Source of the DNA: an uncultured Chloroflexia bacterium
Lineage (GTDB): Bacteria; Chloroflexota; Anaerolineae; B4-G1; SLSP01
Direction of reading: 5' to 3'
DNA length: 64,000 bases
Assembly (NCBI GenBank): GCA_963751345.1
Contig: CAVVUS010000013.1
Location: 32,001 to 96,000, forward strand
Positions 2,044 through 27,420 of the stretch are shown piece after piece. Below the pieces are notes generated by a model, which did no database searches, was not told the DNA's origin, and saw only the letters and a list, made by a program, of their open reading frames with translations. The stretch's first letter is position 1, and each line of letters opens with the position of its first letter. The position numbers were made by a program, and so were the translations under genes.

Positions 2044-2167
2044 CCGCGAAGGCTTCCGCCCTAGAATGACTGGGCCTATTGTTCTGGGTATCGCGTGAGA
2101 TAGCCGGGCGTCTGCGCAGCCGGATACGATGCAGCAGCTCGCAGACAACCGAAAGGGAGGCCATTCT

Positions 2168-4040: not shown

Positions 4041-7000
4041 CTAGCGCGGTCCCACAGGCCGTTTCGCCCGCGCCGGGAGTCCCTCGCGCAGATCCGGCGC
4101 CTGGCTGGAGGCGACAACCCCGTGTGCGACGTTAAGCTGCCCTACCGTGGCCACGTCGATGTTGTTGTAGAAGCCTCCCTGGATCTCGTGACTCTCCAGC
4201 ACGCCGCCATAGGTCGTGTCGGCGTCGGTTGAGTCGACCTGGGCATAGAGAACCGTGCCCTGGGCCAGTGGCCAGCGGACACGGCTGTAGCTCTCCCAGA
4301 AGTAGGCATCCCCCACGTGCAGCGTCAGGCTGTCGCCCGGCATCAACGGCAGCGCGCCTTCCTCGACACCCCAGACGAGCCCCTGACTCGCCAGATCCTC
4401 CCAAACCTGGTTGACGCCGGTCGGTGCGGGGTCCGGGTTCACGTAGAGATCGACCCAAAAAGCATCGACCACCGGCGCATTGCCGCGGTTGCGGATGACG
4501 ACCTCGACGGTGTCGGCGTCGGCGCGGATCTCGTCCACGATGAGATCAGGCGCCCGCAGGTAGTCCTGCATCACCACCGGGAGGTACACGGTCGCAGGCG
4601 TTCTGCTCGTCACTATTTCCACCTCCAGCGGCCCAAGGGTGGACACATTGCCGGCGGCATCCTGCGCCTCGATGAAGAACGTGTAGGTGCCATCGCGCGT
4701 GAAAAGCACCGTGTCGGTGTAGGCCCACGCCCCACCCACACGCGGGATGCGCGCACCGACCTTCGACCCGTCCGGCGCGACACCCATCAGGCGCACGGCG
4801 CTGACGCCGCCCGCGTCGGCCACCTCACCCGCCATCCGCAGCGGCCCCGCAGGCGACACCGGAACGTCAGGCCACTCGGTCACAGTGATGTCGGGTCCGG
4901 TCGTGTCGATGATGAGCGTCAGGTCGAGCGCCGTTGAGCGGTTGCCGACCGCGTCGACGCCGTAGACCTGGAACGACCGCTCGACGTAGCCGCCCTCGCC
5001 GATTCCGATCGGCGCAGCGTCATCGAAGACAGGATAGTACCAGCGCCCGGTACGGGAGCCGGTGTCCTGCGGCACGAGAATCAGGCGACCCTGGAGGTAT
5101 TGGCCTTCGGCTGCTCCGATGTCGGCACCGCACAGCGATAGCGTCCAGGTGCCCGCCGCCTCTTCGCCCAGGAAGGCCTGGAGGGGCGCGGACGGACGGG
5201 CGAGCCGCGCGTAGGCAGGCGCCGCCGGGATCGTCACCCCGCCCCGAGTGCAGCGCCGATGATGCTGCATCGCTCAGGAGTACGTCGTAATTCGCAGCCG
5301 CGTCTCGCCCGTCAGGGCTTATGATCTCCACCTGGGTGTTGGCGGGCGAGGTCAGCACGCCGACCAGATCGTCGCGATGTGTGTGGCTGATCGTCAGCCC
5401 CACCCGCACCTCGCCGATAGCGAGGGCATCGGTGACGACGAAGGTCCGCTCGATGCACGCCGTCCCACCTCCGGTGACGGCAGGGGCGACCGGCACGTCA
5501 TCCACCACCACGTCCGCCGGCCCGGGATCGAGCTGCACGTCGGCCGGCGCGCAGACCCCGGACTCGCAGACGACCACCTCCCCCAGCCCGCGGTTGTCCT
5601 CTACCGTGCCGCGCAGCGCGAAGGGCGTCTCCCGTACGAGAAGTGCACCTGTTCCTTGAGCAACCTGCTGCTCAGGCGCCACGTTGAGCGCAACCACCGG
5701 CGGCACGCTATCCACGACGAAGGGATAGGCGCTCGACCACGCACCGACCTGTCCGAAGATATCGGTCGCCCGGATCTGGACGCCGAAGGCATCACCGTCC
5801 TTGGGGACAGTGCCACCGTTGAGTGCCGTGAGATCCCAGGGGCACGACCAGCCGCCACTCTGAGCTGCCCATCCCGTGCAAGTCCGCGTCTGCACGCCGT
5901 TAGCGGGCGTCTGAACGCGCAGGGCCACCGCGGAGACGCCCGAGGCGTCGTACGCGTAGCCGCTGAGCGTGGTCGTGCTTGTCGGCACCAGGTAGTCAGG
6001 CGCTTGAATGCCGTAGAAGGTCGGCGCGGCGGTGTCCAGCGGATGGTCGATCCAGACCCACTCCACGGGCGGCCCGCCCTCAGGATGGGCCTGATCGTAG
6101 ACCAGCAGGTCGAGCGCGGCCCACGGTGCGGACCCGGCCCCGGTCACACCGTGCAGGGTCACGTTCGCCTCTCCACCGGCGGCAACGTCCCCCAGCGTGA
6201 TCACCTGCCGGTCGGCCGCACCGCCCAACAACTGCAGGCCGTAGTGCGCCTGGGCCACGAGCTTCACATCCTCGGCGGTGACACTGCCGCGGTTGTGATA
6301 CGTCAGGGCATAGGTCACAACCTGGCCCGCCCCAGTTGCGGGACGTGGGTATTGACGAAACTGAAGCCCGTACTGACGTCTGCAGGCGGCGTGCCGAACA
6401 TCGGGTCCCAGAGCCCGGCCAGGCCGTCGCCCAGGTAGCGGGCAACGACGCCCTCCGGCGCCATGGTCACGTCGAGATAACCGTCCGTGTCGGGGCTCTG
6501 CGCAGCGGGACAGACGCCCGCCCCGAGCGCAGGCCAGAGATAGCCGCGGGCCAGCGCGAAGTCGGCCTGCCCGGCAAGCGCGGGCCCGGCAAGCGTGCTG
6601 TTGGCCGGATTCTGGGGCGGCATCGCCGCCCACAGCCGGAGCCCCGCCGTCCGAGGCGCTTCGTCCTCACTGGCGAAGGCGACCAACCCCAGGCTCCCGC
6701 TTCCATCGGAAGGGAGCCCAAGGAGGTCGATATGGCAGCGCAAGATGGGTAAGCCCGTCCCGCAGGGCGGGGTCATAGGCGAACTGCGCCGCCGTCAGCT
6801 GGGTCTGTGTCACCCAGGTCGACCCGTCCCAACGCCAGAGCCACGCGGTCTCGTCGTCGCTCACCCGGACCATCAGGTCGGCAAGCATCGCGGGCGCGGG
6901 ATCCCCGGCCCGGCTGACGCCGCCCGGCAGCGTCGTGGGGGTACCCCCGGCAGATAGACGTGTGTCTCGGCATCGTCGACGTAGGGATTAAGCGTCTCGC

Positions 7001-10000
7001 TCGTCCCGCCCGCCGCCGTGTCAAGGTAGACAAAGAGGTCGCCGTCGACATCCCAGTCGGCCCCCGCCCAGGCCAGACGCAGCGTGTCCGTCGTCCAGGT
7101 CGCGTAGAATCGCTGCTCGGGCGTGGACGAGGTCTCCGCTGCGCCGCTGCGCGCCGCGCGCCGGTCCACACCGACGAGGTTGCACGGCTCACCCAGCCAG
7201 CCCTCATCGGACGAAGGCGCATAGGCGGGCGTCTGCTCGTAGTCGACCGTCACCGGCCCCACCGTCTGCACCGTCCGGTTGCCGGAGGCGTCCACGACGA
7301 CGACGTGGGCGAAGAGGTGCTGCGCCTCCCCCACCCCCTGCTGGTGTCACGCGGCCGCCGGGCCGTACGTGGTCAGCGAACCGTCGGGATCGGCGGACGT
7401 CGTCCAGCCGGCAAGGTAGCCCATGACATCCGGACTCGTACTTCCCGTCCAGGCGATGTCCAGCGTCGGCGCCAGGACGTCGCGGATCGTCGCGCCCGGC
7501 GTGATCACGGTCTGAACGCTCGACGCGTTGAGGTATGACAGCGTGACCGTCACGGGCTCCGGCGGCTGGGCATCCACCCAGACCGTCGGCTCGTCTCGGT
7601 CGTGTTTCCGGCAAGATCCGTAGCCCGTGCGTACAGCGTTGCCAGGTCGCCGTCCGGCGGAACGTTGCTCCCGGTCCAGGCCGCCCCGGCGAAGGCATGG
7701 GAGGCGTCGGCACCTCGGCGTCGGTCCAGGGGCCATCGTCGTAGCGCACCTGAAGCGCGGCGACTCCGAAGGTATCGGTCACCAAGCCGCGCACCGTAAC
7801 GTACCCCGCGCCGGTGAAGTCGGCGCTGGAGATGACGTCCGTCGTCAGCAGCACGGCCGGAGGCACAGTGTCCACGGTGATGGCAGGCGCGGGAACGGTC
7901 TCCGTGGTCGTGCCGCCTGCCCAGTCGGCGATCTGCGCGGTGATGGTGTAGACGCCATCACCGGGCGGCGTCCAGCTCGTGGTCCAGAGCGTCTCAGTAA
8001 CATCAGCCGTCGCCCAAGTCGTCGTCGAGATCGGCACGCTGTTGACCGTCACCGTGAGGGCCCTCAATGCCTCGGGAGCGTAGGCGTGACCCGTGATTTC
8101 GATCGGGTCAAGCGTAGCGTAGGCCATCCCGTCAGGCGGCGAGAGAACGGCGCTCTGTGCAGCGCTTTGGCAAGGCACGGGCGTGCCAAGGGCGCGAGCG
8201 CCGCCCCAGCCGCGGGCATACCTTCCTCGAGACAGCCAGGAGCTCGCCGTCTGAGGCGCTACCGCCGTCTGAGGCGCTATCACCCCGCCCGGCCCGGCGC
8301 TCACCGACGCGCACTGGCCGAAGATGTCGCATGCCGTCAACGTGTAGGGCGCGCTAGAAGCCTCCAGGCCGCGCCCAATGGGGCTCAACGCCACCAGCCG
8401 CGTCTGGCTGTAGATCGCCGTGTACCACGGCTCGTCGATGTAAGCCTCGGTGTCGGTATAGGTGCGGTCCGTGCCCTTGACGTCGGTGAGCGTGTGCCCG
8501 AGCAGGTTGTAGTCAGATACTGAGAGCCAGTAGATCAAGCGGCTCGACGTCCAGGAATACCCCTGCACCGAGATGCACACCTGTGGCGGCGCGGTATCGA
8601 TTTCGCCGGACCACACATTGGGGATCAGCCGCGTGCGCCCGAAGCCGTCAGTCACCTTGAGGTCCACCTGGTAGGGCCCCTCGAGGCCCGCCATATCGAA
8701 GGTCCAGCCGCTGGCGGGTGCCCCGGGTTCCGCAAGATCTGCGTCCCGCCAACGCTGGGTATCGGCCAGCGCCTCGATCTCGTACGACGTGAGCGCGCGG
8801 TCGTAGACGACCACCTCGTCGAGCGCACCCTGGAAGAAGTTGGTGGGAACTGCGCCCTCCGCCCCCATCGTAAGCGGCACCTTCCGCGAGTCCGTGCTCT
8901 GGCGGCAGGCGTACCCGATGCCCACCAGTTCACCATTGCGGTAGAGATACCAGCAACCGTCGTCGGTCCAAACACCTGCCAGGTGCACCCACGACCCGAC
9001 GTCGCCCACAGGGACATCGTAGGTCGCGAGGTCGTTACCGTAGATCAGATCGACCATGCCGGCCTGGTACTGCCCATCCTTGATGCGCAAGGTGAGGCTG
9101 GCCGGCTCGTTCTCTGCGCCGGTACCGCCGACGCCGTGGAAGAAGATCGTGCGCGTACCGTCAATCGCGTCAGGGCGGACCCAGGCCGCGAAGGTCACCG
9201 GCCTGCCGAGCGCTACCGACCCCAGCGTCACGCTGTCGTCGGTGCCGTCAAAGGTGACGGCGCCGTCGACCATGCCGGCTTCCCCGGTGGCGGGACAGCC
9301 TGTGCCTTGACAATATCCGGGTTGCGACAGCGACCCGAGGTTGTCGAAGACATTCGTGCTCCCTGCGGCCTCATCAAAAGGCAGATAGGCCGGCAGATCC
9401 TCATAGAGCGCCGCGCCCTTGGCGTGGCGGAGGCCGATCGAGAGCTGCGACACTCCGGCAGCCACCGATTGCGCCAGCCCCAGGATCGCATCGTCGGCCA
9501 GCGCCCGTTGGTAGATGCCAGTTCATCCAGTGCTCCGGTGAAGTACGCCGAAGCCCCCGTCTGCGACTGTCTGCCGATAGCGACATCTAAGCGAACCGGA
9601 GAAGGCATCGGTAACGGTCGTGCTGTCGACGCGGACGCCATCCAGCAGCAAGGCGATCTCGTCGCCCTGTTTGACGGCAGCAGCGTGGTGCCACGCCCCA
9701 TCGTTGACCGTCGACGGCGAGTTGACGATGGTCCGCGTTCCGGCGGGCCGGTAGGTGAAAGCCAGATGTCCGTCCGCGTCCAGGCCGACCCAAAGGCCGC
9801 GCGACACGTCACCGGGCGCCGTCGCCGCAAAGATCGTCTGCGGCCCCGGTGAGGACGTGTTGAACCAGAAGGCGATCGTCGCGTCGTCCGGCTCGAAGGC
9901 GTGAATGGTCTCCGTCGTCGTCGCCGTGGTCGTGACCACGCGATCCTCGACCATCAGATAGTCGCTGCCGCCGAAGTAGGCGGCCTCTCCAACGCGACCG

Positions 10001-13000
10001 ACCTCGCCGGCCCTCGGACAGGCCCCCTCGGCACAGGTCGCCGTCATCTGGCGGCCGGACCCATCGTCGAACGACGCGCTGCCCGTGGGTTCCTCGAAGC
10101 CATAGGCCAGCACGCGCCCGCTGGGATACGGCACGTCGGCTACTGTGCCCGCCAGGATGGGCGTCTCGTCACCAATGCCGATCATCAGCCCCGAATCGTC
10201 GTCCGAGCGGGTGACGGCCACATCGGGCGCCATCCCGTCGAGGGAGACGACCTCCTGCTGCCGCGCTACGGTATTCGCGACCGCGTCCTTTGCCTCCAAC
10301 TTGAGCGTGTACCTTCCGTCCACATCCTCGGGCACGGCGTAGGCGACCTGCCAACGCTCACCATCCACCGCCGCCATCTGCCGCCCCCCAAGCGACACGC
10401 CGTTCTGGTCGAGGAGATCGATCCACACGCCGGCGACGCCGGCATCGCCCCGATCGCGTACCCCGCCCGAGAGCCGGACGACCTGATGCGTCCGGGTCTG
10501 TGGCGTGAAGAAAGTCACGGTCGATGCGCCCAGAGGGAGCTTCAGGTTGTGCCCCGAATCCATCCAGAGCTGTACCGCGTAGTGGCTGCCGACGATCTTC
10601 GACGTCGGAGCGAAGGAGAAGCTCACGTCCTTCTCGGTCTCCCCCGGCTGCACGTCGAAGGTGCCGATCTCCTCGTAGTTGATGCTGACGATGAATGACG
10701 CGACGTCCCCCGCGTACATCTCATTCTCGAACGCGAAATGCATGTCGACGCGATCGACCACGTCGGCGTCGATGTATCGATAGCCGGTGGCACTCGCACT
10801 GCTGTGCCACCACCCACCGGAACCCGTGTACAGGGCGTCGCCACTCGCGGGGAACGCCGCCGTCGCTACAGGCACGTCGACCTCGTCCACGGCCGTCTCC
10901 ACCGGCAGCGTGCGCTGAGTGGAGGCGGAGTCGACAGTGACTGCAGGCGGGCTTCCATCGACCTTGAAGGTCACGCTCGCGATACTCGATCGATGGCCGA
11001 CAGTATCCCACGCCCGCGCCTCGATCGTGGTCTGTCCCTCGTGCGAGGGGGTGAAGTAGAAGAGCCACGCGGCGCCATCGCGTGTCGCATTGTGCCACAC
11101 GCCGCCATCGACCCGGTACCAGACGCGTTCGACGGCCGACGTGGCATCCTGAGCCTCGATGGCGATCACACGTTGGGGCGACATGTCGACGACGGGGGCC
11201 GTGAAGTCGATGGCAACCGTCGGCGCCTCGGCATCGACCGTGATGCGATGATCGGCGCTGACGTCGACCCACGAGACCTGGTAGTTGTAGAGCGCCTCTA
11301 CCTCACGCTGCGAAAGGACGCGCCCGTAGACGGCCACTTCGTCAATCTGCCCCGCGAAGGGCAGCGCAGGGCCCGTGCCCCACCCCGCTGAGCTCGTGGC
11401 GCCGATATAGAGCGGCAGCCCCGACTGGCAAGCCCAGAGCGGCGGATCGAGCGACGCGTCCCGCGAGCCGTTGACATAGAGCATCAGGCCATCGTCGCCA
11501 TAGGTGAGCACGACGTGGTTCCACTGATCCTGCAGGAGCGCGTCCGGCGTGCTCGTGAGTGCCTGGTGGCAGTCGTCATACTGCAGCGTCGTGGCGTCGG
11601 GGGCGATGAAGAGCCCAAGGCTTCGCACCGAAGCCCCAAAATCCTCGCGGGTCAGCAGCGTCTGGGAGATCTCACGCCGTTGGGTGGGTTTCACCCACAT
11701 CGCGACGCTGTATCCGGTCGACGGAATGCTCGACCCGGCGTAACTCAGCTTATCATTCATCCCGTCGAATTGGAGCGCCCCACGGATCCAGCCGTCGGTG
11801 CCGCTCTTGGGACAGGTGTCGGTGCCGTTGATGTCCAGGTCGCAGGTCGCATTCTGTGCCGCGCCGGCCTCATTCAGGAAGGAGGTCGCGCCCAGGGACT
11901 CGTCCAGGTGCAGGTTGAGCACCGGGATCTCCTTGGTCAGCGCCGCGGCCTCACCGGCTGACAGGGCGCTGCGGGTGACGACCACGTGGTCGAGGTACCC
12001 CTCGAAATAGTCATTCCCGGCCGCATTTGCCTGCCCAATCGTGAGATCGGTGGCGCCGGCAAAGCCAAAGGTCGTTCGAGAGCCCGACGCCACCAGCGTA
12101 CCATCGACGTAGAGCTTCTGCCCACCGACCGAGCTGCCGATCGTGTGCACGACATTGTGCCACGTCCCGGCCGAGAGTGCGTCGGTGCCGCAGATCGTCT
12201 GGGAGGCCACCTTGGCGCAGAGCGTACCCCCATTGAGGTAGATCTGCGCCTGCTGGCTGTCGTCGTCCACCACGGAGAAGAGCCCGCAGTTGGCGCACTG
12301 GTCGCCGTAGGTCTTGGTCTTGTACCAGAAGGAGACGGCCGCCTCGGTGTCAGGGACGTCGACGTCGACCTGGATCCGATCGTCAACGCCGTCGAGGTGG
12401 ACGGCTTGGTTGGCGCGTCCGGCGACGCCCGGTCACAGGGCAACGACTCCCGTCGCAGATCCCGGCGTCGCCGTTGCCCGAATCGTCGGCAAAGACACTG
12501 GCGCCGGGTGGCTCGTCCAGCCGCAGCTCCAGCACGCGGATGGCGCTCTGGTACAGCTCCTGGACCTCGTAGGGATCCAGGGCCTGCCTGTAGACGCGGA
12601 GGTCATCAAGGCTGCCGTCGTAAAACTCGTTCCGGACTGACCAATAGAGCGTGCCCTCACCGTCGTTGGTGTAATCCTGGGAGTAGGTACCGACCTGGTA
12701 AGGCCAGAAGGACCGGTTCACCTCCAGATCGTCGTCCCCCCGGGCGAGCTCGTTGATGCTCTTGTCGAGCTCGGTCATCGTCACAAAGTGCAGCCAGTCG
12801 CCGTAGACGGTATAGGCGTAAGGGAGCGAGTAGGTTCCCGGGTTCACGTCGAGTTGCGCCCAGATGCGGTGGCCGTCCACGAAAGCCGTTGTACTCCGCC
12901 GAGCCGGAGCCATCGCCTTCGTCGTCGACCACGACCTCGTCGAAGATGACAGTGCTGGCGCTTGAGGCACGGCCCACGTCCAGTCCGCTGGACGCGATGT

Positions 13001-16000
13001 CCAGCGAGCTCGACGCGTAGGGCTTCGTCCCCGCGCACGTCGCGCTGGATCCAATCGCCTTGCCGTTCCGGTAGAGCGTGAGGTTCGTGCCATCAAAGAC
13101 CGCAGCGACCTGCTGCCAGGTGTTGAGCTTGAGCACATTACTGCTGCTGGTCACGTCGCAGACCTGGCTGCCGTTGCCGAACGACGCCTTGATCTCTTTG
13201 AGCGAGGTGTCTACGTAGAGACCGGGATAGCTGCGCTCCGGGGTATCGTGGTCGTCCTGGCCAAAGACCCCGACCCAGCCATTGGAGGCGGGCCGCGGGT
13301 TGATCCACGCAGCGATCGTAAACGTGCCCTCGTCACGGTGCAGGTTGAGGCTGTCGTCTGCCGCAGAGATGGTCAGATAGGACGTCTGGTCGAAGTCCGC
13401 GGCCTTTCCGACGACGCCCGCGATTCCCGCGTCGGGACATTGCGTACAGGTGACGGCGTGGTGGTGCGAGGAGCTGTCCCCATAGTTCGAGGCCGACGAA
13501 GCGTCGAACCTCAGCTGGAGCACCGGTTCCTTGAACCGGGACCGGATGTCGTCGGCGCCTAATACCCGCGGGTAGAGCTCCACCTCGTCGATGAAGCCTG
13601 TGAGATAGTCGGTATCCGCCGCCACGGCATAGCCAAAAAGCATAGCATTCTGCCCGCCGAAATCCGACGACGTCAAGGCGCCGTTCGCCCGGCGCTCACC
13701 GTCGACGAAGATCGCCTGTCCTCCCTGCGCGCCGCCGAAGGTGTAGGCGACGTAGTGCCAGGCGCCGGTGGCGTAGTCGATGCCGTTCGTGCAGATCGTC
13801 TCGGTCGTGCTGCGCCCCAGCCGGGCGCAGAGGTTGCCGCCGTCGAGATAGAGGTCGCGGTCGTGCTGCGCCGTCCCGGCCTTGATCGCGGAGGCGATGC
13901 CGCAGTTCTTGCACGAGGTCTTGAACCACAGCGAGAGCGTGTAGTCCTCCTCCGAGGCGTCGACGCCGCTGGTGACCCGGTCGTTGCCGCCGAAGTTGAG
14001 CGCCCGCAGATATGCGCCATCGGCGCCGGCTGTCGGGCACGCAGCGCCGCTGCACGTGCCGTCGTGGCCCGCGAGCGAGGCATCCGCGAAGGTCGTGGCG
14101 CCCGAGGCCTCGTCGAAGTGTAGCCACAAATCGCGCCCGTCGACCACGGCCTCGCGGATGTTAGCGATGATCGCGCCCGCGCGGTTGGTCAGGCTGATCT
14201 GCTGTGAGATCGCCAGCGGATCGACGGTCACGTTGCCGGTCAGCATCGTCTGCGCCAACGGCCCCAACTCATAGGGCTGTGGGACCAGAGTAGCGTCCTG
14301 CACGGCGGGTGGGAAGTCCACCTCCAGCAGGCCAAGCGCGTAGCGGTCGCGCAGCTCGTTGGCGACGGTCGCAGTATAGGCGACGGTGTCACCGGGCATC
14401 ACCAGCCCGTCCTCGTCGCTGACCTGGGACTCGATCGTAAGCACGGTCGCAGGGCCCGGCACGCGGGGGTTCATCCCGTAGACGCTCTCCAACTTGTCGA
14501 TCAGGCCGTCACCGTCGGTGTCGGGCGAGAGCGGATCGGAGGTCACGCGCGTGATGAGCGGCGCCACCCGATGGCGCGAAACCGTAGACGAACTCCCATC
14601 CTCTTCACCTCGTCGCCATCTTTCAGCCCATCGTGATCGGTGTCGGCGTGCCTGCGGATCAGCCCCGTATCGCACCTCGTCGTAGTCGGAGAGGCCGTCG
14701 CCATCGCTGTCCGCCAGCGTCGGATCGCTGCCCCACCGTACCTCGTAGAGATCCGAGAGCCCATCGCGGTCGGTGTCGGCCGTGCGGTCGCTGGGATCGT
14801 TGCCACCGAAGGCCTGACTGATCAGATCATCGCCGTCAGCATCCATCAGTGCGGGGAAGCGCGTCGAACCCGACTGGCCCCACGCCAGCGCATAGCCGCC
14901 GTCCTTGGGCGTGAGCGCGAAGAAGCCGGAGACCGTCGTGGGCAGGACGTCGAAGACTAGGCCCAGGTCCAGGTGGAGCGAATCGCTCTTGTCGCGCAGG
15001 TAGCAGACGGGGATCGCGGGCGGGGTCAGAAGCGGGTTAGGCACTATGAAGCACTCCTGCGCGTTGATCGCGTGCCCCTCGTTGAGATAGGCGGGCACAT
15101 CAACGTTGATCCCAGCGGGCGTCAGTAGGAAATCGTAGCCGCTGGCCAGCGTCGTCTCGTGCTCGAAGGGATAGTCGCCGGACCACGTCAACGGATTGGA
15201 CGTGGTCAGTCCCTGGAGCAGATCGAGATCTTCCTCCGCCGCTGCGAAGCTGTAGGCGAAACTTGACTCCTTCAGGTACTTGTTCGCGTACTGCCAGCCA
15301 TAGGTGTAGGCTAGCGGCGAGATCGGCCAGTGACGGTAGAGTTTCGTCGTCACGTCAGCACTCAGTTTGACCTCGTTGCCCTCGACGAAGCCGACGGTCG
15401 GATAGGTGTCGCGCAAGTCCAGCGTGAAGCCCTGGACCTGCAGCCGATCGTCCTTCTCAAGATCGACGATCGGGTTTTGGCTGTAGATCAGGAACTGGAC
15501 CAGCTTCGACAGCGCGCCGGAGATCCCCGCGCAGATGTAGTCGCGGATGATGGTGCCGCCGATTTTGTCGGGGTCGTCGGCCTGGAACTCGTCGAGACCC
15601 GTGACCGTGCAGATGATGCCGATCACGGCATCGATCAGGCCGATGATGGCGACGATGATCTGGCCGACGACCGGGATCAGGCCGATGGCAAACATGATCA
15701 CGGCGACGATGATCCCCGCGACGACCGACGCCAGCGCCTGGTCGAACCCAAGCGAGGCAAAGCGCACGCCGCCCATGATCATCTGGGCGACGAAGAAGCC
15801 TATCGAGATCGCGGCTGAGATGACCAGCCCGATGATCGCGGCGACGTTGGCCGCCGACCGCAGATCCACAGTGGCCGTCTCGATCGCGTTGCGCACGCCA
15901 TACTGAAACTGACCGGTGAGGTTCGCCTTGTAGAGCTCCAGCGCCGCATCGAGCACGTCCTTGACGGCCATCGTGAAGTCGATGGCCTGGAGCGCCGCGA

Positions 16001-19000
16001 AAACGATCTCCTCGCCCGAGGCACCGGAGAGCACCGCGTAGGTGATGATGACCACGGCACCCGCAACGGCTGCGCCGGCGGCAAAAGCAACCCCTGCAGG
16101 CACCTTGTTGCCGTAGAACTCGAGGTCGAAGATGTTGTCAATCCACGAGTCCTGCAGGTTCTTCTTCGCGCCGCCGATGGCCGCGAGCAGCTTCTCGCTC
16201 GTGGTACCCATGTACGTCAAGCTTCTTGGCAGCTTGCGCAGCGCGTCGATCGCCCCGCTGATGATCTGCTTGACGAGCCTCAGGGGGACGTTGGTCACCC
16301 CTTGCCAGCTCGACGACAGCCCCGAGTCGATGACACCATCGTCGCTGCGGTCGAGAACCACGTTTCCGGCCTCTACCACACCTGTCACGCCGCGATAGAG
16401 TGCCAGGTAATAGCTCTGGCTGAGGATGATCCGGCCCTTATTCTCGTAGCCCTCGGCGTCACCCTCAACGCTCGCGAAGAGGTCGCCGAGGTAACTCGCC
16501 ATGACGTCCCAATACTCGTCGATCGGGTACGCCTCCCACCCACCGGTCGCGTCGTAGCGGTAGGGCGCCCAGTTGAGCCCGGCGATCACCTCGTCGTAGA
16601 CCTCCGAGGGCGAGAGCGAGAGGCCGAGCGCGTTGTCGACGACCAGGCCGTTGAGCTCCTTCCCCATACCGGTGCTGCGGAAGTGCTCCTCGCGCGCGTA
16701 GAGAATCGTCGGCGCGCTCACCTTGGGCACACCGTTGGCGTCGAGGAAGTAACTGTCAAGGATCTGCGCCGTGTGCGTCATCGGCAGTTCGGCCAGCATG
16801 GACTGGTCGGGGAACGAGAAGGTCTCGACGTTGAGGACCTTGAGCGTCGGCGTGATCCCCCACCGCTCGTCAATCGTCGCCGTCGACGTGAGGTCGAAGC
16901 GGCGGGAGATCTCGGGCACGGTGATGTCCCGGTGGACGACCGGCGCCCTCACCGCTGGCGCGCCCGGTCACAAAGGTGTCGCTGAGGTTCGTCGCAACCT
17001 GCCACAGCCACCGCTCGTAGGTGGGATCGCGGTCGGGCGAGTTGGCGTTCTCGAAGACGGCGGCGACGTCGACGCCGTGGTCCTCGCGCACCGTCAGCCC
17101 CGTCAGGTACCAGTCATCGTAATAGGAGTGGAGAATGCGCGGTGGATTCGACTTCCAGTTGGCATCGTCCGCGCACCAGGTCTCGGCGAACGCATCGCCC
17201 AGAGTCTCGAAGTCTGTCCCGTCGGGTGGAGCGCAATAGTCCGTGATCGCCTCGACGAGCCAGACCAGGCGCACTGTCTGCGCTCTACCGAAATCCACCC
17301 CGTCGGGCCGGTAGAGGATGCGCGATGAGAAAGCCACGGGACTGTCGCCGTTGGTGTCGCGAACCAAGGTGACCGGCGCGTAAACCAACAGTGAGGGTTG
17401 GTCATCACTATTCTTGTACCGGACCGACATCTGGAGGGCGTCGGTCGCTGCCGTGTCGAGCCACGTCGTCACCGGCGTGGTAGCCGAGAGCGACGGCGCG
17501 TTGGGTACGACCGGCAGGTTGCCGTGGTGATCTGCGTCAGTGTAGGGGATCTCAATCTCCAGCATGGGAATCAGGCGCATGTCGCCCTGATCGTCCTTCT
17601 CGCCCACCGGCTCGCCCAATTGCGCATTGACGTCGGCGAAAGTCGAGTCGTTGACCCGCTTGATCTGCCCACCTCTGTCGCCCGACGGCCAATCGAGCAC
17701 GCTCAGACTGTACCAGAGGTGATCGGGGTTGGTCGGGCGGAGCTGGAAATCCACAAAGACAGGCGTGTCGACCGATTGGCTCGACCAGGTAAGATCCAGG
17801 TCAAGGCCGCCATCCTCCAACCCCTGGACGCCACCCTCGGCATTGCGCCCGCCCCCCATCACGGTCGTGCGCGCAGGATCGAGCATGTCGGGCACGCCGT
17901 CGCCGTCGTCGTCGACGTCAAAAGCGTCCGGATCACCATCCCCGTCGGTATCGGCGCAAGCGCTCCCGACACCGCCGGGGTTGAGATTGCTCAATTCGTA
18001 ACACTCATCCAGGTCCGAGATGCCATCGTGGTTCGTGTCGGGATCGTTCGGGTTCAGATACCAGCGCACCCCGTAGAGCTCGAATCCTGCCACCTCGACG
18101 CCATCATCAATCTGGTCGCCGTCCGTGTCGGCCCGGCAGGGATGCGTGCCCAGGTCGATCACCTCCACGCCATCGGAGAGACCGTCACCATCGGTGTCGG
18201 CCGCGGCCGACAGGCAGGCCACGTCGCCCACGGCGCAGGCCACGCCGGAGTCCGTGCAGGCGTCCGCCTCCTCGGCATCGGTCAGGCCGTCGCCATCTGT
18301 GTCAGCCGCCATCCCAGGCGCATCATCTCCGCTCCCCGGCGCATTGTCGGCCAGCAGTGTCTGCAGGGATGCCACGCTGGGAAGGCCGTTCTGCACGGGC
18401 GCCCCTGTGGTGGATGTATCGGCAGAGGGTCCCGCGGCTAGCGGGTCTTGGTGAGGATCAAAGTCAGTCGTCGTAGCCGCCGCTTGTGCTTCATCTGCGG
18501 CCTGCGACCGCGCCATCTCGTCGTCATACGCGGCAGCCTGAGCGTGTTGGTCGGCCTGGAATGCGTATGCCTTCTGCGCCTGAATCTGTGGTACCACGAT
18601 CATCGACAGGATCAGCAGCCCGACCAGCCCGGCGTAGACCGTGCGCGAACGCCGCCACACGAGCACGGCCACGAGGAACGCCACCACCCCGCCGAAGAGC
18701 CCGGCATTGGTGCCTACCCGCGCCAACTGGTGGGCGGTCGCTGAGGGCAGCCCTAACGGTCCCGTCGCGATCTGCTCTGCCCAGCCACTGAAATCGGTGG
18801 TGATCGTCGCGTCGACCTGGTCGCGGCCGGTGGGTGGGAAGTGCGCCTTCACGATCTGGCGCAGCGGAAGCCCCGAGGTGTCGAGCCAGATCTCGCCCTC
18901 GCCGGTCATGTCAGCGTAGAAGCTGGGGGTGTCCAGGTCGACGCCCGCCGGGAGCTCTCCCTTCCGGCGGAGCTCATCCTCGAGCTGGCCGCGCATGTGC

Positions 19001-19542
19001 GTCGCGAAGGCGGTCCCGTCGACCGTGAATGCGTAGCGCGTGAAGGTCACGCCGCCGCGAGACTCGGTGCCCAGCAGTCGCACGTCCGAGGCCCCGGCGA
19101 GATAGCCGAGGAGATCGTTGCCCGGCGCAAAGAGTGACGTACCGTTCTCGATCTCGCGCCACGCCTCCTGACCGACACGGCCGTAGGTCGTGCCTTGCTC
19201 AACCTTGAGCTCGACGCTGCCGTCCTGGTTGGCGACACTCCCGTCGCCGGACCAGAGCCGCATTCGCATCGTCTCGGCCGCGAGGTCCGTCTCACCCTCA
19301 ACGTAGATACGATCCTCGGTCGCCGCCTGCCCGGCGTTCTCCACCCGTAGCGTCGGCCACGTGCTCTGGACGATGTCGGTCGTGTAGCTGTAGGCACCGA
19401 TACGCTGTGCCTCGCGCCACGCACGTTGAACCACCGCCCCAGCATCGTCGACGGAGGCGCCAAAGGTGGGTTGGGCGATGGCAAGCCCGCACAGGGCAAG
19501 CATCAGGAGAACGAGGATAAGGTAGATGGATCGTTTTGTCAT
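4041..19542 (-). CDS. giant (~5100 aa) exported multidomain protein, reconstructed across ~10 frameshifts: LppX/LolA-like N-domain, TM hairpin, DxDxDG Ca-binding repeats, hydrophobic helical region, six LamG domains, Ig-like/DUF11/P-domain/CARDB
   Basis: Consecutive overlapping minus-strand ORFs (16870-19542, 12657-16952, 12383-13138, 9523-12273, 7204-9465, 7347-7736, 6873-7334, 6315-6776, 5020-6633, 4041-5270) continue domains across their junctions. Single GGAGG+ATG at 19542 followed by a signal peptide. LamG starts LHFDE/LRFD/LRLDE/LHLDE/YGFEE/LPFDE with WHHV and G.IDEV motifs. Confidence 0.8.
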
Positions 19543-19908: not shown

Positions 19909-22900
19909 TCACTCGCCACGCCTCAGCAGTGGCAGGAAGACCTCCCACGGGCCGTGACCCGTGCCGTGGAAGAGCGCATACTCGCCGGTCTGCGAGACCT
20001 GCACGACCAATCGTCCCATCACGGGATCGGCGCTGACCCCATCGATCCCATCGGACGTCCACGCGGTGCCGCTCCATCGCCTGAGCTCGACCTCGGCCCC
20101 GTCCTGATCAGCGAACTCGTCGGTACCGTAGGCGATCGTCACGGTCAACGGACGCCTGAAGGCGATAGGCGACAGCGGGGCCTCGTCTCGACCTGCGGTC
20201 AGTGCAAAGGCATGCCCCGCGAATCCGCCCGGTGGAGTGGATGCCGCCGTCATCGGAATCGGCACGCAGCCGATCGTCGTGGAGACGGCGACCGCGCCTG
20301 CAGGAACTTCCACGACGGTGGGATGCCCTTGAGCACTAGCGTGGATCAACACGCCCCCAACCATCGGGCCGACCTCGATCTGGAAGATCTCCGCAAGGAC
20401 ATCGACGGTCACCACCGCAGCGTCGTCGAGGCCATCCTCATCGCGCGCCGTATACGTGAAGACGTCTCGCCCCGTGAAGCCGGGCGCGGGGTCGTAGGTG
20501 ACCACCCAACCGTCGGTCGTAGCCGTGCCGTGGCCGGGCGCACCGATGGCGCTCACCTGGAGCGCCGTTCCCTCCGGATCGACGTCACCACGCAGCACGT
20601 CCAGGGACGCCGTCGTGCCCGCCAGCACCGTGAACGCGTCGTTCAGGGCAAACGGCGGCGTCGGGCGGTTGCGCCAGACCGCATTCGGCGCCAGCAGGCC
20701 GTTGTTCGTCCCGGTAAGGGCGTCGAGGTCGCCATCACCATCCAGGTCGCCCAGCGCGACCGACAAGGTATCCCAGTCGCCCAGCGCTTGCCCGGTGTTG
20801 GCGAAGACGCCGGAGCCGTTGTTCTTCCATATCTGGTCGGCCGACTGCGTCACCAGTGGCGCACGGGCATTCCCGACAAAGGCATCGAGGTCGCCGTCGG
20901 CATCGACGTCGCCCAGCGCCACAGCCCACGTCGCGCGCGCACCCAGTCGCCGCCCGCTGTCCACAAAGGCACCCGCTTCGTTCAGCCAGACCTCGTTGGG
21001 CTGCCCGTCCATGTTGCCGACGAACGCATCCGCATCACCATCTCCGTCCAGGTCGCCCGTGGCTACCGCGAAAGTGTCAGCCGCGCCAAGCCGCTGCCCG
21101 CTGTCGACAAAGACGCCGGCTTCGTTGAGCCAGACCTGGTTCGGACGGTTGTTCGCGATGCCGAGGAAAAGGTCGAGGTCACCGTCGCGGTCGAAGTCGC
21201 CTGTTGCCAAGCGCCCGCACCGGCTCGTAGCCGAGGCGCGTGACCGGCGATGAAGGTCCCCGGTGTGCCGCCCTGCAGGCCGCCGTCGTTCAACCAGAGC
21301 ACGTTCGGCTGGCCGACGTCGCTCCCCGTCACAGCGTCGAGATCGCCATCCGTGTCGACGTCCAGCAACACGACGGCATAGGTGTCCGTGTTGCCCAGCT
21401 CCTGGCCGCTGTCGGCAAACCGGCCCGCCTGACCCTGCGCCGTCTGGTTCATCCAGACCGTGTCGGCGCCACCGTAGGTGCCTACGAAGGCATCCAGGTC
21501 GCCGTCGCCGTCGAGGTCACCCAGCGCCACAGCCCAACTGTTCGCGAGGCCGAGTGCCTGCCCACCATCAGAGAGCGTGCCCGTGCCATCGTTGAGCCAG
21601 ACGGCATCCGGCGCCCCGTTGCGCACCACGTAGCCGTCGAGGTCGCCGTCGCCGTCGAGGTCGCCCAATGCCACGGCTTGCGTGTCAAGCACGCTCTGCG
21701 GCCGATCATCAGGTAGTTGTAGAGACGCCCCGGTGGGGCGTCTTCCGGTAGGGCCTCTTCGGGGCCTTGCAGGGCTGCAGCCGTCTCCACCGGGTAGAGA
21801 TCCACCCGGTCGAAGACTCCCGTGCCGCCCGCTACCGGCGCGCGGAACTGCCACGAGAAGGGCGGCAGGGCCCGGCCGTCGGTGGACTGCACGTCGCCGG
21901 TCAGCGTGGCCTCCACGACCTCACCCGGCCGGAAGCCGGTCGAGGGTGTGAACGCCGTCTGAGGCGCGAAGTCAACGACGCCAAACGAGAAGACGTCGTA
22001 GGGCGTGACCCGTACCCCACGTGCCCCGGCGTAGCTCCCGGTCTGTTGGCCGCGAACCAGGAAGCTGGCCGAGGTCAAGGTGTTGCCCGCGATCGGGCGC
22101 GTGCACGTGGCCGATGCCATCGTGCCGATCTCAAAGACCCGGAACGCCGGGTGCACCGTCGCGTCAAAGGAACGCGTGGTCACAGAGAGTCCGTCGGTCA
22201 CGCTGATGGCGACCGATGTCACCCCGAACGTGGCGCCCGTGGGCGTCAGCGTGATCGTGCCGGTGGCGGCCGGGCTCGCATATCCGACCACGGCAGGCTG
22301 CACCAGCGTCGTATCCGCCACGGCCGCCGTGACCGCGAGCGGCTGGCTCTCGTAGGGCCCCGGCCCGATCCCGGCCAAAGCAACCGCAATCGCGGGGCCG
22401 TCCTCGTCGAGCGTCTGGCCGCCGATCGCGCTCACCGTGGGCGGGTCGTTGACCGGGGCAACGTAGACATCGAACGTGCGCACGGTCGACAGCAGCCCAT
22501 CGGTCACCGTCACGTCGATGGTCGCCCAGCCGTTCCGGTCAGGGGCGGGCGCGAGGATCAGCCGGCCCGTCGTATCGGGATTGGTGTAGACCACCGTTGG
22601 CTGGGGCACGACTGGCGGGCGAGCGCGAGCGCCGCGGTCACCGTGACCACCTCGCTCTCATAGGGGCCGGGGCCGATACCCGACAGATCGATCGTCTGGG
22701 CCGGGGCGTCCTCCTTGATGAGGAGCTTGGCCAGCGCGTCCAGCGTCGGCGGATCGTTCACCGGCACCACGGTCACCGGGAAGCTCTTGACCGTGGTCGA
22801 TAGCCCATCGGTGAGCGTCACGACGATCGTCGCCGTCCCTTGCAGATACGGAACGGGCGTGATCGAGACCGAGCCGCCCGTGTAGGTGCCCGGGCCGTTG

Positions 22901-25900
22901 TCATAATAGATGACCGGCTGCGGGATCAGCGCCGTGTTGGTCGAGCTTGCGGTGAAGGCGAGCGCGGGCCGCTGCTCACTCTCGTTGGTCGGGCCGTAGC
23001 TGATCGCGCTGAGCGGGACGTTGTAGGTGCCGACGTTCTCGGCGACCGTGACGCTAACCGGGACCGTGAACTGCGGAGGATCGTTGACCGCCGTGATGTC
23101 CACCTGGAACATCGACGAGGTCGTGGCCACCCCGTCGCTCACGGCGACGGTGAGGAAGGCGACGCCGAACTCGTCGGGCGTCGGCTTGAAGACCAGATCC
23201 GCCGTTGTCTCGGGGCTCGTGTAGACCACCGTCGGCACCGGCACGGCGTAGGGCGCCACCTCCGTCCGCTGGACAGTCACGGTGAGCGCCTGGATCTCAT
23301 TGAAGGCGCCGCTGGAGATCCCGGTGATGTGCACGGTCTGCGTCGGGGCATCCTCCGGAATCGCAATCGCAGGATGCGCGTCGACGGTCGGCGGATCCTC
23401 GACGGAGGTCACCGTGACCGTGATGCGACCCGTCACGGTGAGCCACCCATCGCTGACGGCATAGTCGAAGTGGTCGAGGCCGTAGAGATCGGTGGCGGGC
23501 GCGTAGTGCACGACGTTGCCGGCAATGCTCGCCGACCCGCTGATGGGTGTCCCGACCGAAACGATCGACAGCGTCTGCAGATCGGGGTCGTGGTCGTTCG
23601 CCAACACCGGGATGTCGACCGCCACATCCTCCAGGGTCGATGCCGTGTCGTCAACGACCACGGGCGCAGAATTGGCGCCGCCGACGTCGACGGTGACGGT
23701 CGCCGAAGCGGTCAGGCCGCCACTATCGGCGACGGTGTAGGTGAAGACCTCCGACCCGTAGTACCCCGTGGCAGGCGTGTATAGGATGTGTGTGGTGCCG
23801 CTAAGGATGGCGGTTCCACCGTAGTTGGGGGTCCCCACGGCGACCAACGACAGCAAGGTCGCCATCGGCGTCACTGTCGTTGGCGAGCACGCCCAGCACG
23901 TTGCCCACCGAGTCCGGAACCACGATGAAGTGGTCGTCCACGGCCGAGGGGGCGTTCTTGTTGTTGAACCAAACCGTGTCCGGCTCGCCATAGTTGCCGC
24001 TGTTGCCAACGAAAGCATCCACGTCGCCATCGCCGTCGAGGTCACCAAGGGCGACCGATGTCGTCCCTTCCTTGCCCAGGGTCTGCCCGCTGTCCACAAA
24101 CACGCCCGTGCCATTATTGAGCCAGACGCTGTTGGCCACGTCTGACTCGCCACCGCGACCCAAGAACGCGTCCAGATCCCCGTCCCCATCGACGTCGCCC
24201 AGGGCGAGGTCGACAATCCAGCTGGGCAGCGATGCCCCGCCCTGGGTGGTGAAGATGCCGTCGGTATTGAGGCGCACCGGGCTCGACCCGTTGGCGAGGA
24301 AGAGATCGAGGTCGCCATCCCCGTCCAGGTCGCCAAGGGCCTCGGCCCACACGCTGGACGCGCTTACCTGCTGGCCACTGTCGGTGAAGTTTCCCGCACT
24401 GTCGTTGAGCATCAGCACAGAACCATCGGCGTACCGCCCAAGGACCATATCCAGGTCGCCGTCGCCATCTACGTCACCCAGCGCCACGTCGTTAGTCGAT
24501 TCAGTCCCGAAGCGCTGGCCGCTGTCAATGAACTGACCGGGCGTCCCACCCTGAAGGCCGCCCGCATTCAGCCACACCTCGTCCGCCGCACCTCGGTTGG
24601 TGACGGCGATGTCTTCGTCGCCGTCACCGTCCACGTCTCCAAGGGCGATCGCGGTCACATCATCGGTGCCCAGCGTCTGTCCGGTCGTCGTGAAAGCACC
24701 GTTCGCGTATACCCATACCTCCGCACCTGCGGTGGTTCCCAGCACGAGATCGAGGTCGGCGTCACCGTTGAGCTCCCCGAGTGCCACGGCGGTCGCGGCA
24801 GGCAGGGGTGCGAGACTCGGGGTGAAGACGCCGCCGGTGTTGAGGTAGAGCGTGGTCGTGGGGTAGTGCGCGGCGACAGCATCGAGGTCCCCGTCGCCAT
24901 CCACGTCGCCCAGCGCCACACCCATCGTGGCCTCGCTCCCCAATCGCTGGAAGGTATCGCTGAAGACGCCCGTTCCCTCGGTCACTTCGCCGCGGAACTG
25001 CCAGACGTACGGACGCAGCCCGCTGCCATCATCTGCCTGGATATCGCGGCTGAGCACCGCGACCAGCTCCTCACCCGGTTTGTAGGAATCAGCTGCCTGG
25101 AAGCTGCACATCTCAGGCCCTGCACCGAGGGCATACGTTCCTGCATAGACACCTGTCTGGCGTCCGCGCAACGTGAAGGTCCGTGTCGAGACGGTGGACA
25201 TGTCCAATGCCTTGTCGAAGGTCACAGACACGACGCCGTCTGCGGCAATCTCCCGCCCGTTCCCCGCAGGCGAGGTCGTCACCACCTGGAGGGGGGCGAC
25301 CCAAACGATGGCAGGGCCCACTTGGTTGTTCTCGGACACCTGGTCCGTGATGCAGCCCACGTCGGTCTGAGCGTAGATGACGTGCATGCCCGACGTGGCG
25401 AAGCCCGGATGCGTGAAGGTGAGGGTCACCACCCCGCCCGCAGCCAGCACCGGCGTCGCCTGCTGTGCCTCACTGCCGCTCCCGGCGTCACACGCCGTGG
25501 GGGCCAGGTCACTGTAGATGGCCGTGGAGAACGGCGTATCGACGTCCCCCGTGCCCCGGTTCGCGACAACCACCGTGACCGCAAGCGACGAGCCCAGGCC
25601 TACGGTGTCGCTGCCGACGGCGAAGTCCTCGATGGCCAGATCGCGGAGCCCATTGCTCCACACGGAGACGGGATTGGCCGCCAGAACCATGTCCAGGTCG
25701 AGATCGCCGTCGACATCTCCCAATGCGATGTCCCGTGCCTCGGCTGCGAAAGCTTGCCCGCTGTCGGCGAATTGCCCGAGCGTCCCGCCCTGTGCTCCGC
25801 CCTGGTTTAGCCACAGGCGGCTCGGCTCGTATGGATCGCCGACGGCAACTGCCATATCGAGGTCGCCATCGCCGTCGACGTCCCCCAGAGCGACGGCAAG

Positions 25901-27121
25901 ACTGGCCCAGGCGCCGGGGCTCTGCCCACTATCGGTGAAAACACCGGTGCCATCATTGAGCCAGACCATGTCGGTCTGTTGATCGTTGGCAAGCACGACA
26001 TCGGCATCACCATCGCCGTCAACGTCGCCAACCGCGAGATCGCGCGTGTACCGCACCGCGAGCTGCGAATGATAGACGAAGTTACCCGATCCATCGTTCT
26101 TCCACACCTCAGTGTAGCAGGACAGATAGCCTGCGAAGACCGCATCCAGGTCACCATCGGCGTCGAGATCGGCCAGGGCAACGGCGACATTGGCCTCATT
26201 GCCCAGGTTACCGAGCGCCTGCCCACTGTTGGTGAAATGCCCGGACCCATCGTTGAGCCACACGGTGTTGGCGCTACCGTTCATAGCGACGATCAGGTCC
26301 GGATCGCCGTCGCCGTCCACGTCGCCGAGGGCGAGCCCGCCGGTGCTGCCCGATCCGAGGCTTTGGCCGCTATCGATGAAAGTCGCGCTGCCATCGTTGA
26401 ACCACACCTTGTCCGCCCCCGGACCGTAGCCCAAGACCAGGTCGAGGTCGCCGTCGGCATCGAGATCGCCCAGGGCGGCTGAACGCACGAGTCCCGTGCC
26501 AAACACCTGGGCCGTGACGACGTAGCGCCCCCCACCACCGTTCAGCCAGACCCGCGTGCCGTCGGCCATGAAGTCGCACACCACTGCGTCGAGGTCGCCG
26601 TCCGCGTCGAGGTCTCCCAGAGCGATCACCTGACGCGCCCCGTCACTCAGGACCTGCCCGTTCGTCGCAAAGAGGCCGTTCCCGAGTCCGGCCTCTGCCG
26701 TGAACTGCCAGACCGTGGGCAACACAGGGCCCTCGCCGCTGAGGTTGAGAGTACCCGTCGTCGCGCTGGCCATCACCAGCTCGCCCGGTCTGAAGGGTTC
26801 GGTCGGGGTGAAGCGCGCGGTGGCACCGCTGATGTCGTAAGCGCCCTCCCGAAGGCCGGTCTGCTGGCCATAGACCGCGAAGGTCCGGGTCGAGACCGTA
26901 GCAGGATCGAGCACCTCGTCGTAGGTGATAGCGACCGTGGTCGTGCTGGGTACCGCAACGGACTCACCCAATGGCAACACCGCCGGGTTGCCGGGGGCAG
27001 CGAGGATACGCGGCGCAGGCGCCGCACGTGTATCGTGGACAACCGCGCTTACGACGAAGATCAACCCCAACGCCAACAAGAAGGGCACAGCAAGGCTGCC
27101 CAGAGATCGCGAGGTTCGCAT
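19909..27121 (-). CDS. large (~2400 aa) exported FG-GAP/VCBS-repeat protein with Big_5, CARDB and Big_9/cadherin-like domains (frameshifted)
   Basis: AGGAGG+ATG at 27121 and a signal peptide. Three blocks of ALGDxDGDGDLD repeats, each after an Ig module ending in WQF. DVLAND.DPD repeats; C-terminus VFLPLLRRGE. Breaks near 23850, 22610, 21740 and 21230. Confidence 0.85.
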
Positions 27122-27296
27122 CCTTCGCCTCCTGCCTTTGAGATCCAACGTAGAACAGTAGAATTGATGAAGGGCTAAGTAAAACCAGCAACGCGCCGAG
27201 TCTCGAACGGCCCGGCCCGCACCGGATCTAAGATCTGCCTGCAGGACGATAGGAAGCCGACCCTTCCCGCCACCTCCTGGATCAGCCGCCAATCTA

Positions 27297-27325
27297 ACTA
27301 TAACACTACCATCGAATCGTCGCAA
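27297..27325 (-). promoter_or_regulatory. putative promoter of the giant-protein operon
   Basis: Minus strand TTGCGA, 17 nt, extended TGtTATAGT; implies a ~170-nt leader. Confidence 0.55.
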
Positions 27326-27420
27326 TTCGTCCCGACCTGAAATGCATTCCATCTGATTGCCGGGGCGCATACCGCGTGTATCATGAGGTCAGAGTCAATG
27401 CGTGATGCAAGGAGGGATCG

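Follow-up and report, generated by a model that had tools for sequence, protein, structure and literature searches.

We show here that the hydrophobic helices encoded at 15500-16150 of a 64,000-nucleotide stretch of DNA from an uncultured Chloroflexia bacterium (hereafter the window; assembly GCA_963751345.1, contig CAVVUS010000013.1, positions 32,001 to 96,000) belong to one giant gene of about 5100 codons, which runs on the minus strand from about 19542 to 4041 and is read from several frames in this assembly. A first-pass annotation had proposed that these helices are a pore-forming or translocation domain buried in a giant extracellular protein. Our analysis supports a giant, cell-tethered, largely extracellular protein with LamG and immunoglobulin (Ig)-like domains, recognised by Pfam, that possibly bind ligands, and does not support the pore-forming domain. 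Instead, the helices are likely to be a self-membrane anchor, that is, a four-helix module fixing a giant surface protein in the cytoplasmic membrane of its own producer. As judged from sequence comparisons, what is new is a fixed plan of 2 + 4 helices with a near-invariant, Asp-bearing hairpin, in a family that has neither a Pfam or NCBIfam model nor a solved relative.

The three peptides on which the first-pass annotation relied are all present in the minus-strand translation of the open reading frame (ORF) at 12657-16952 (P0001, whose residue numbers are used below unless stated otherwise), where they span residues 284-448 (window 16103-15609). A 19-residue Kyte-Doolittle (KD) scan of this region finds four hydrophobic helices rather than the four to five that had been counted: residues 283-313 (peak 2.22), 366-396 (2.59) and 398-454 (2.89, two helices), which we refer to as helices A to D. 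As had been noted, they lie between two blocks of DxDxDG repeats, and TSP3_bac scores above the Pfam cut-off on both sides. The helix stretch itself is a single continuous frame, collinear with homologues. For counts within the family we used the 123 whole-module homologues among 149 listed matches besides the window's own ORF, leaving out partial matches, and took the best 19-residue window under simple KD cut-offs as the measure of helix hydrophobicity. On this measure, helices B, C and D reach a KD value of at least 1.6 in 118, 120 and 122 of the 123 homologous modules, and a helix-A-like segment does so in 102. The helices are therefore hydrophobic across the family and are not a chance feature of one sequence.

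The family has a fixed layout, consisting of a signal-like segment, a hairpin with a basic loop, an ectodomain, the four helices, a beta-sandwich, TSP3 repeats, LamG domains and Ig-like domains. Among the 99 homologues with at least 700 amino acids ahead of the module, 92 have a signal-like N-terminal hydrophobic segment and 77 have, by a strict pattern, a helix-short basic loop-helix hairpin around residue 300, with loops of the types RRSKK, HRRSKK and RRSR. In the window, three ORF pieces in succession score 116, 171 and 84 bits for Laminin_G_3 (cut-off 27.6), and TSP3_bac is likewise above its gathering score; Pfam finds the same two domains in the shorter homologues. Since the helix counts are even (2 + 4), the TSP3, LamG and Ig-like parts would all come to lie on the same side, outside the cell. 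The first-pass remark that the helices lack clear positive-inside flanks turned out to be partly right: family-wide, the 15 residues before helix A and those before helix B are basic (for B, K+R 1.84 vs D+E 0.68), and the 15 residues after helix D are acidic (K+R 1.19 vs D+E 2.86). Nearly invariant cysteines follow downstream of helix D, the set comprising C448, C474, C634 and C650, and together with the acidic flank they fit an extracytoplasmic location of this part of the chain.

Our preference for an anchor rests on the extracellular type of the flanking TSP3, LamG and Ig-like domains, on the frequency of the signal-like segment and the basic-loop hairpin together with the even helix counts, and on KD peaks of 2.2-2.9 flanked by basic residues before B and acidic residues after D, with no toxin match. 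When they follow a Sec signal, helices of such hydrophobicity serve to stop transfer or to re-insert the chain. We infer from these features a topology in which the producer, an Anaerolineae-type Chloroflexota bacterium, would export the giant protein through Sec. The signal-like N-terminus would carry the chain outside, and the first hairpin would dip into the membrane and out again, with its basic loop in the cytoplasm. Some 850 residues, comprising TSP3 repeats and the conserved domain, would then remain outside; the membrane-proximal base, looped between two anchor points, would amount to about 1150 residues. Helix A would run inward, so that the A-B loop, helical and about 57 residues long, would come to lie in the cytoplasm; helix B would run outward, and the tight C/D hairpin would pass in and out once more. 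The four very hydrophobic helices would thus serve as stop-transfer and re-insertion signals, and the beta-sandwich with its cysteines would sit just outside the membrane, from which an adhesin-like stalk would project, made up of further TSP3 repeats and of LamG and Ig-like domains amounting to about 3500 residues. The protein would, in effect, be stapled to the membrane at two places.

Structure prediction reproduces the helices, and the fold searches singled out no family. The AlphaFold2 model of residues 1-717, built with 30 sequences, has a mean predicted local distance difference test (pLDDT) score of 71.8 and places helices at residues 286-308, 313-345, 349-394, 401-424, 429-451 and 464-489, followed by a confident beta domain from residue 490; the ectodomain preceding the bundle is modelled as an alpha/beta domain, with pLDDT 78-90 at residues 41-90 and 121-160. 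Modelled separately, residues 460-717 reach a mean pLDDT of 89.5 and a predicted template modelling (pTM) score of 0.80. Foldseek searches of the PDB returned no match at E≤1e-3 for either model. In the VIA wide search, the best score for the 1-717 model was Z 7.2 (root-mean-square deviation 1.9 over 60 residues), to a two-helix transducer fragment, with residues 265-365 at low confidence; the tool describes this range as common for helices, and the next rows were also generic hairpins. The beta-domain model resembled generic beta-sandwiches only, at best a glucan-binding module (Z 4.9), and rows for pore-form gasdermin, perforin and haemolysin structures had a probability of at most 0.06 or a Z score of at most 4.2. 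A sequence-profile search of the PDB at E≤1 gave only LamG, pentraxin and TSP rows plus noise, the LamG rows stemming from LamG parts that the alignment had brought with it. Predicted as a homodimer without controls, residues 280-495 gave 'no answer' (score 0.00, mark 0.42), which counts neither way.

Conservation within the module is concentrated in the C/D hairpin. Across the module's columns, mean entropy is lowest in helices D (1.85 bits) and C (2.08 bits) and rises to 2.24 bits in the beta-sandwich, 2.52 in the N-domain, 2.71 in helix A and 3.04 in the A-B loop. G430 is present in all 124 sequences, C448 in 121 and D441 in 118, the other six having E (3) or N (3) at this position. The conserved positions of helix D (430, 433, 437, 440/441 and 448) share one face, helix C bears a small-residue stripe, A408xxxA412 (A408 in 108 and A412 in 106 of the 124), and the turn between the two helices is apolar (IPVVG). 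Because C and D are the best-conserved part of the module, these helices probably do more than tether, and the conservation pattern suggests that the hairpin probably forms a specific packing or partner interface and is not a passive tether.

Several observations weigh against a simple anchor. The conservation of C and D exceeds what such an anchor needs. Helix A is only weakly hydrophobic (KD 0.77-1.60) in 20 of the 123 homologues, with one further row too short to score, and the number of helices would be odd there if the weak one failed to insert. No flank is more basic than the 15 residues preceding helix A (K+R 2.86, D+E 0.77), yet our topology places them outside. The AlphaFold2 model is poor at residues 265-365, with pLDDT below 50 over much of the stretch. 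Lastly, the gene is split into several frames here and is therefore possibly non-functional in this organism. The basic flank before A and the weak helix A in 20 of the 123 homologues are two points that depart from a textbook anchor. The members with a weak helix A (P0018, P0022, P0045, P0057, P0061, P0067 and 14 others) are rich in Ala, Gly and Ser at this segment.

The conservation of the C/D hairpin is also an argument for an active device, in which the hairpin with Asp441 would bind or conduct ions, or would couple the ectodomain to a membrane partner, for example in force or signal transduction or in the surface motility of filamentous cells. The low entropy of both helices, the near-invariance of G430, D441 and C448 and the one-face pattern with its A408xxxA412 stripe all favour this possibility. 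As an analogy only, membrane hairpins with a buried carboxylate are characteristic of ion-coupled machines, among them the ATP synthase c subunit and MotB/ExbD. On the other hand, conservation within the module is lowest in helix A and in the A-B loop, which is presumed to be cytoplasmic, so that no conserved cytoplasmic partner surface is apparent; a conserved neighbouring gene was not found, the best upstream clusters being present in 12 and 9 of 79 loci; and the Pfam rows for MotA_ExbB (E 0.5) and holin (E 0.0044) lie far under their cut-offs. An active role of this kind, which overlaps with the anchor, seems doubtful to us, and its most specific form, in which the hairpin is an ion-coupled or force-transducing unit linking a 5000-residue LamG/Ig stalk to membrane energy or to a sensor, is improbable. 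If it nevertheless held, the membrane module, which has no described relatives, would be the foundation of a bacterial equivalent of an adhesion receptor, or of an adhesin for surface motility in filamentous Chloroflexota. A different question is whether the gene is decaying in this genome, leaving the helices functionless in this organism, irrespective of what the family does in others. A minimum of nine frame breaks across about 15.5 kb would fit decay; for comparison, rpoB of the same assembly has one break and rpoC none. However, rpoB, an essential gene, is itself split over two frames, public contigs 90-99% alike lack single bases exactly at four of the break sites, and relatives carry the gene intact, as described below. 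We regard decay as unlikely, though it deserves to be kept in mind.

The original proposal, an alpha-pore-forming-toxin-type domain that inserts into a target membrane on contact, now appears very improbable. The helices are long, rich in small residues and placed beside a beta-rich scaffold, in a manner that loosely recalls the hydrophobic region of large clostridial toxins, and the topology is not a textbook one, given the marginal helix A in 20 of 123 homologues and its basic outer flank. Against this stands the lack of a toxin family among the matches. With Pfam at E≤10, residues 251-520 matched no colicin, RTX, TcdB or other toxin family above threshold; the sub-threshold rows were holin, Tweety, MASE1, MotA_ExbB, HlyE (E 0.7, 9.6 bits against a cut-off of 25) and EI24. 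NCBIfam and the PDB profile search likewise gave no toxin family, and the fold comparison proposed in the first-pass annotation ended in generic hairpins and sandwiches. With regard to polymorphic (contact-dependent) toxins, which carry a variable toxin domain at the C-terminus and are followed by an immunity gene, the C-terminal sequence of the giant protein contains no toxin family recognised by Pfam, which finds only P_proprotein, Big_7 and Big_13 in the last two ORF pieces. Furthermore, the signal-like N-terminus and the basic-loop hairpin would put the chain into the membrane of its own producer. Colicins, RTX toxins and large clostridial toxins exit the cell by routes bypassing Sec; the frequency of the two N-terminal features in the family does not point to soluble release past the producer membrane, and the export route would more naturally be Sec. 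No conserved immunity-like, export or lysis gene was found upstream in the 79 loci surveyed. Taken together, helices suited to the producer's own membrane, a workable topology and no similarity to toxin folds are largely the outcome that the first-pass annotation had itself named as refuting its proposal.

The state of the gene in this assembly bears on all of these readings. The possibility that the helices belong to a 1431-residue protein was rejected, as both the succession of ORFs and the homologues show them to be part of a far larger, broken gene. Minus-strand ORFs follow one another at 19542-16870 (P0002), 16952-12657 (P0001), 12432-9526, 9522-7207 and others, the last piece being 4041-5270 with its end at 4041. 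Among genome loci the closest is L001, whose module is 81% identical and whose intact ORF exceeds 4913 amino acids and is open at its 3' end; by tblastn this ORF is collinear with the window from 19587 to 4836, spread over frames -1, -2 and -3; a genome of the same genus (G338, 80%) has an open frame of 5140 amino acids. A further homologue, P0005, is continuous across the junction near 16900 and across the garbled stretch at P0001 residues ~775-810. At 12885, 14566, 14602 and 14651, all of them break sites of the window, single bases are missing from short-read contigs, 90-99% alike, that come from public runs; these runs cover a small share of the stretch (at most 0.12 of sampled words), and no listed contig bridges the break near 16900. 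At five frame breaks the only homopolymer is one run of 4, with no signature of a particular sequencing error. In the same assembly, rpoB (G000, C10:143888-147659) is read from two open frames of 723 and 624 amino acids split at C10:145966, and rpoC, on C11, is whole. Since rpoB is essential and is split too, the assembly contains indel errors, and since near-identical contigs lack single bases at the break sites, at least part of the breaks look like assembly insertions and not like decay. These comparisons suggest that at least part of the frame breaks are assembly insertion errors. Separately, the window's own genome holds a second, partial rpoB/rpoC pair at C14:93788-96104, matching its stated contamination of 5.6%.

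The 717-residue module (P0001 residues 1-717) defines, on the evidence of its sequence relatives, an uncharacterised family without a Pfam or NCBIfam model or a solved relative. HMMER searches of 1.84 billion representative proteins found 628 members at E≤1e-3 and 275 at E≤1e-30, mostly 3000-7000 amino acids long; in the 85 whole-module homologues longer than 3000 amino acids, the median start of the module is residue 875. Scanning species-representative genomes gave 88 relatives among 310 pattern matches, from which 80 loci were kept, all of them from metagenome-assembled genomes. All but one of the 80 are labelled as Chloroflexota-type (Anaerolineae, Anaerolineales, Caldilineales, Thermoflexales, Ardenticatenaceae, Promineifilaceae and one Roseiflexaceae), the exception being a partial match labelled Gracilibacteria. 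In 59 of the 80 the N-terminal part can be recognised; most of the others are truncated at the end of a contig. Of 301 genomes sampled from the window's phylum, 3 have a match at E≤1e-10; within the window's order, the module occurs in 42 of 121 genomes (17 of the 59 of high quality), with open frames of up to 8201 amino acids and up to 8 matches per genome. One genome of the same family as the window (G329) carries 8 module matches located on separate contigs, so that this protein family is able to grow to many paralogues. A tblastn search of the window's own genome found no paralogue, and the gene is single-copy there. Some members (P0046, P0050, P0061, P0068, P0069 and P0079) have an extra hydrophobic segment in their last ~30 residues, a possible C-terminal anchor or sorting signal that is absent from the window's protein.

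The first ~1700 residues of the protein have no Pfam or NCBIfam coverage besides the TSP3 repeats and two sub-threshold, lipoprotein-like matches in the N-terminal ectodomain (LppX_LprAFG, E 0.0072, Pfam; SCO4651 lipoprotein, E 0.0023, NCBIfam), both of which fall under the curated cut-offs and are a lead only. The best Protein Atlas score, 0.81, to clusters that bear PF26745 'SPM', is under the tool's level for more than a lead and was set aside. The sole name we found for a member is 'Ig-like domain-containing protein'. We found no description of the family in the literature searched, with subscription journals and supplements outside the search, and the accessible part of a study of Chloroflexi (PMC3482391) does not describe it.

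TSP3/LamG surface proteins are common in bacteria, and several known systems share single features with this family. Myxococcus CglD and MtsD (NCBIfam NF033765 and NF047639) have TSP3 repeats and a cell-surface role, and their models match the repeat blocks weakly, at 21-45 bits, far under the equivalog cut-offs of 400 and 800 bits. These proteins are lipoproteins or soluble surface proteins, and none is known to contain an internal four-helix membrane module. The alpha-pore-forming toxin regions (colicin pore domain, RTX, TcdA/TcdB delivery) also have long helices rich in Ala, Ile, Val and Gly; what sets the present family apart is its signal-like N-terminus, its basic-loop hairpin and its even helix counts, with no sequence or fold match to the toxins. 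The C/D hairpin may be likened to helices of the ATP synthase c subunit and of MotB/ExbD/TolR, with which it shares a tight hairpin, small-residue stripes and a near-invariant mid-membrane acid; it differs in its apolar IPVVG turn and its position inside a 5000-residue chain, with no homology detected and no ring or partner shown. Another parallel is found in the giant multi-pass membrane proteins of Omnitrophota, which, according to the accessible part of the report, consist mostly of extracellular domains broken up by internal transmembrane helices (bioRxiv 10.1101/2023.11.21.568195). As far as that part goes, they too are very large and mostly extracellular, with internal helices read as association with the producer's membrane. 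However, they belong to another phylum, exceed 30,000 amino acids and contain SecA-like and enzyme domains, whereas in the present family the helices follow a fixed 2 + 4 plan and the stalk is of LamG/TSP3 type.

Anaerolineae-type Chloroflexota are abundant in soils, sediments and sludge, are mostly uncultured, and have a poorly known envelope and surface biology. With a member of this family of 3000-8000-residue proteins in roughly one in three genomes sampled from the window's order, the 2 + 4 plan would offer a testable picture of how such giants stay on the cell, and the Asp-bearing hairpin a defined target for mutagenesis. At the same time, our result removes a toxin call that the sequence alone had suggested. 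The coordinates of the parts of the protein, from N- to C-terminus, and of the frame breaks are given in Table 1.

Table 1. Parts of the giant protein and frame breaks of its gene, in window coordinates.
Feature	Position	Strand	Basis and remarks
N-terminal signal-like hydrophobic segment	19471..19542	-	P0002 residues 1-24 of the 1-31 segment; KD peak 2.72
N-terminal ectodomain, weak lipoprotein-like resemblance	18772..19443	-	P0002 residues 34-257
First predicted membrane hairpin, two helices and basic loop RRSR	18574..18717	-	P0002 residues 276-323; KD scan
First TSP3 (DxDxDG) calcium-type repeat block	17863..18345	-	Pfam TSP3_bac 31.6 bits (cut-off 25); P0002 best stretch 449-466
Conserved ectodomain preceding the helix bundle, contains the break near 16900	16203..17775	-	homologues align through
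Helix A, hydrophobic, poorly conserved	16029..16097	-	P0001 residues 286-308; KD scan, AlphaFold2
A-B loop, ~57 residues	15858..16028	-	AlphaFold2 helical hairpin at low pLDDT (helices 313-345, 349 onward); net charge +1.5
Helix B	15771..15857	-	residues 366-394; KD peak 2.59
Helix C, small-residue stripe A408, A412	15681..15746	-	residues 403-424; conservation
Helix D, Gly430, buried Asp441, Cys448	15600..15665	-	residues 430-451; conservation
Two short helices and beta-sandwich, residues 460-717	14802..15575	-	AlphaFold2; conserved Cys474, Cys634, Cys650
Second TSP3 repeat block, garbled frame at 14566-14651	14448..14846	-	Pfam TSP3_bac 48.8 bits; P0001 residues 748-766; comparison with P0005
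Distal ectodomain	4041..14000	-	Pfam: repeated LamG (Laminin_G_3), Ig-like domains, P_proprotein-like stretch; C-terminal region
Frame breaks	near 16900, 14566-14651, 12883-12885, 12429, ~9523, 7705, 7586, ~6600, ~5200	-	tblastn of the L001 ORF; ORFs

The neighbourhood of the gene was surveyed on the upstream side of the 79 loci with a giant ORF, the 10-kb flanks ending within the giant genes. No conserved partner, export or immunity gene is evident there. The most frequent upstream clusters are a divergent BTAD-AAA-TPR (SARP-like) regulator, found in 12 loci (L002, L003, L008, L026, L033, L041 and six others), and an ABC exporter gene pair, found in 9 (L004, L007, L013, L023 and five others). 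In the window, four overlapping minus-strand ORFs upstream of the giant gene (19909-27370) encode FG-GAP, Big_9, cadherin-like, Big_5 and CARDB domains; they are probably one or two further large surface-protein genes that are also read from several frames, and similar ORFs lie upstream of the giant gene in L001. The giant gene is followed, just past its 3' end, by an oppositely oriented gene for a DUF362 protein (2129-3382, plus strand; Pfam E 2.9e-48).

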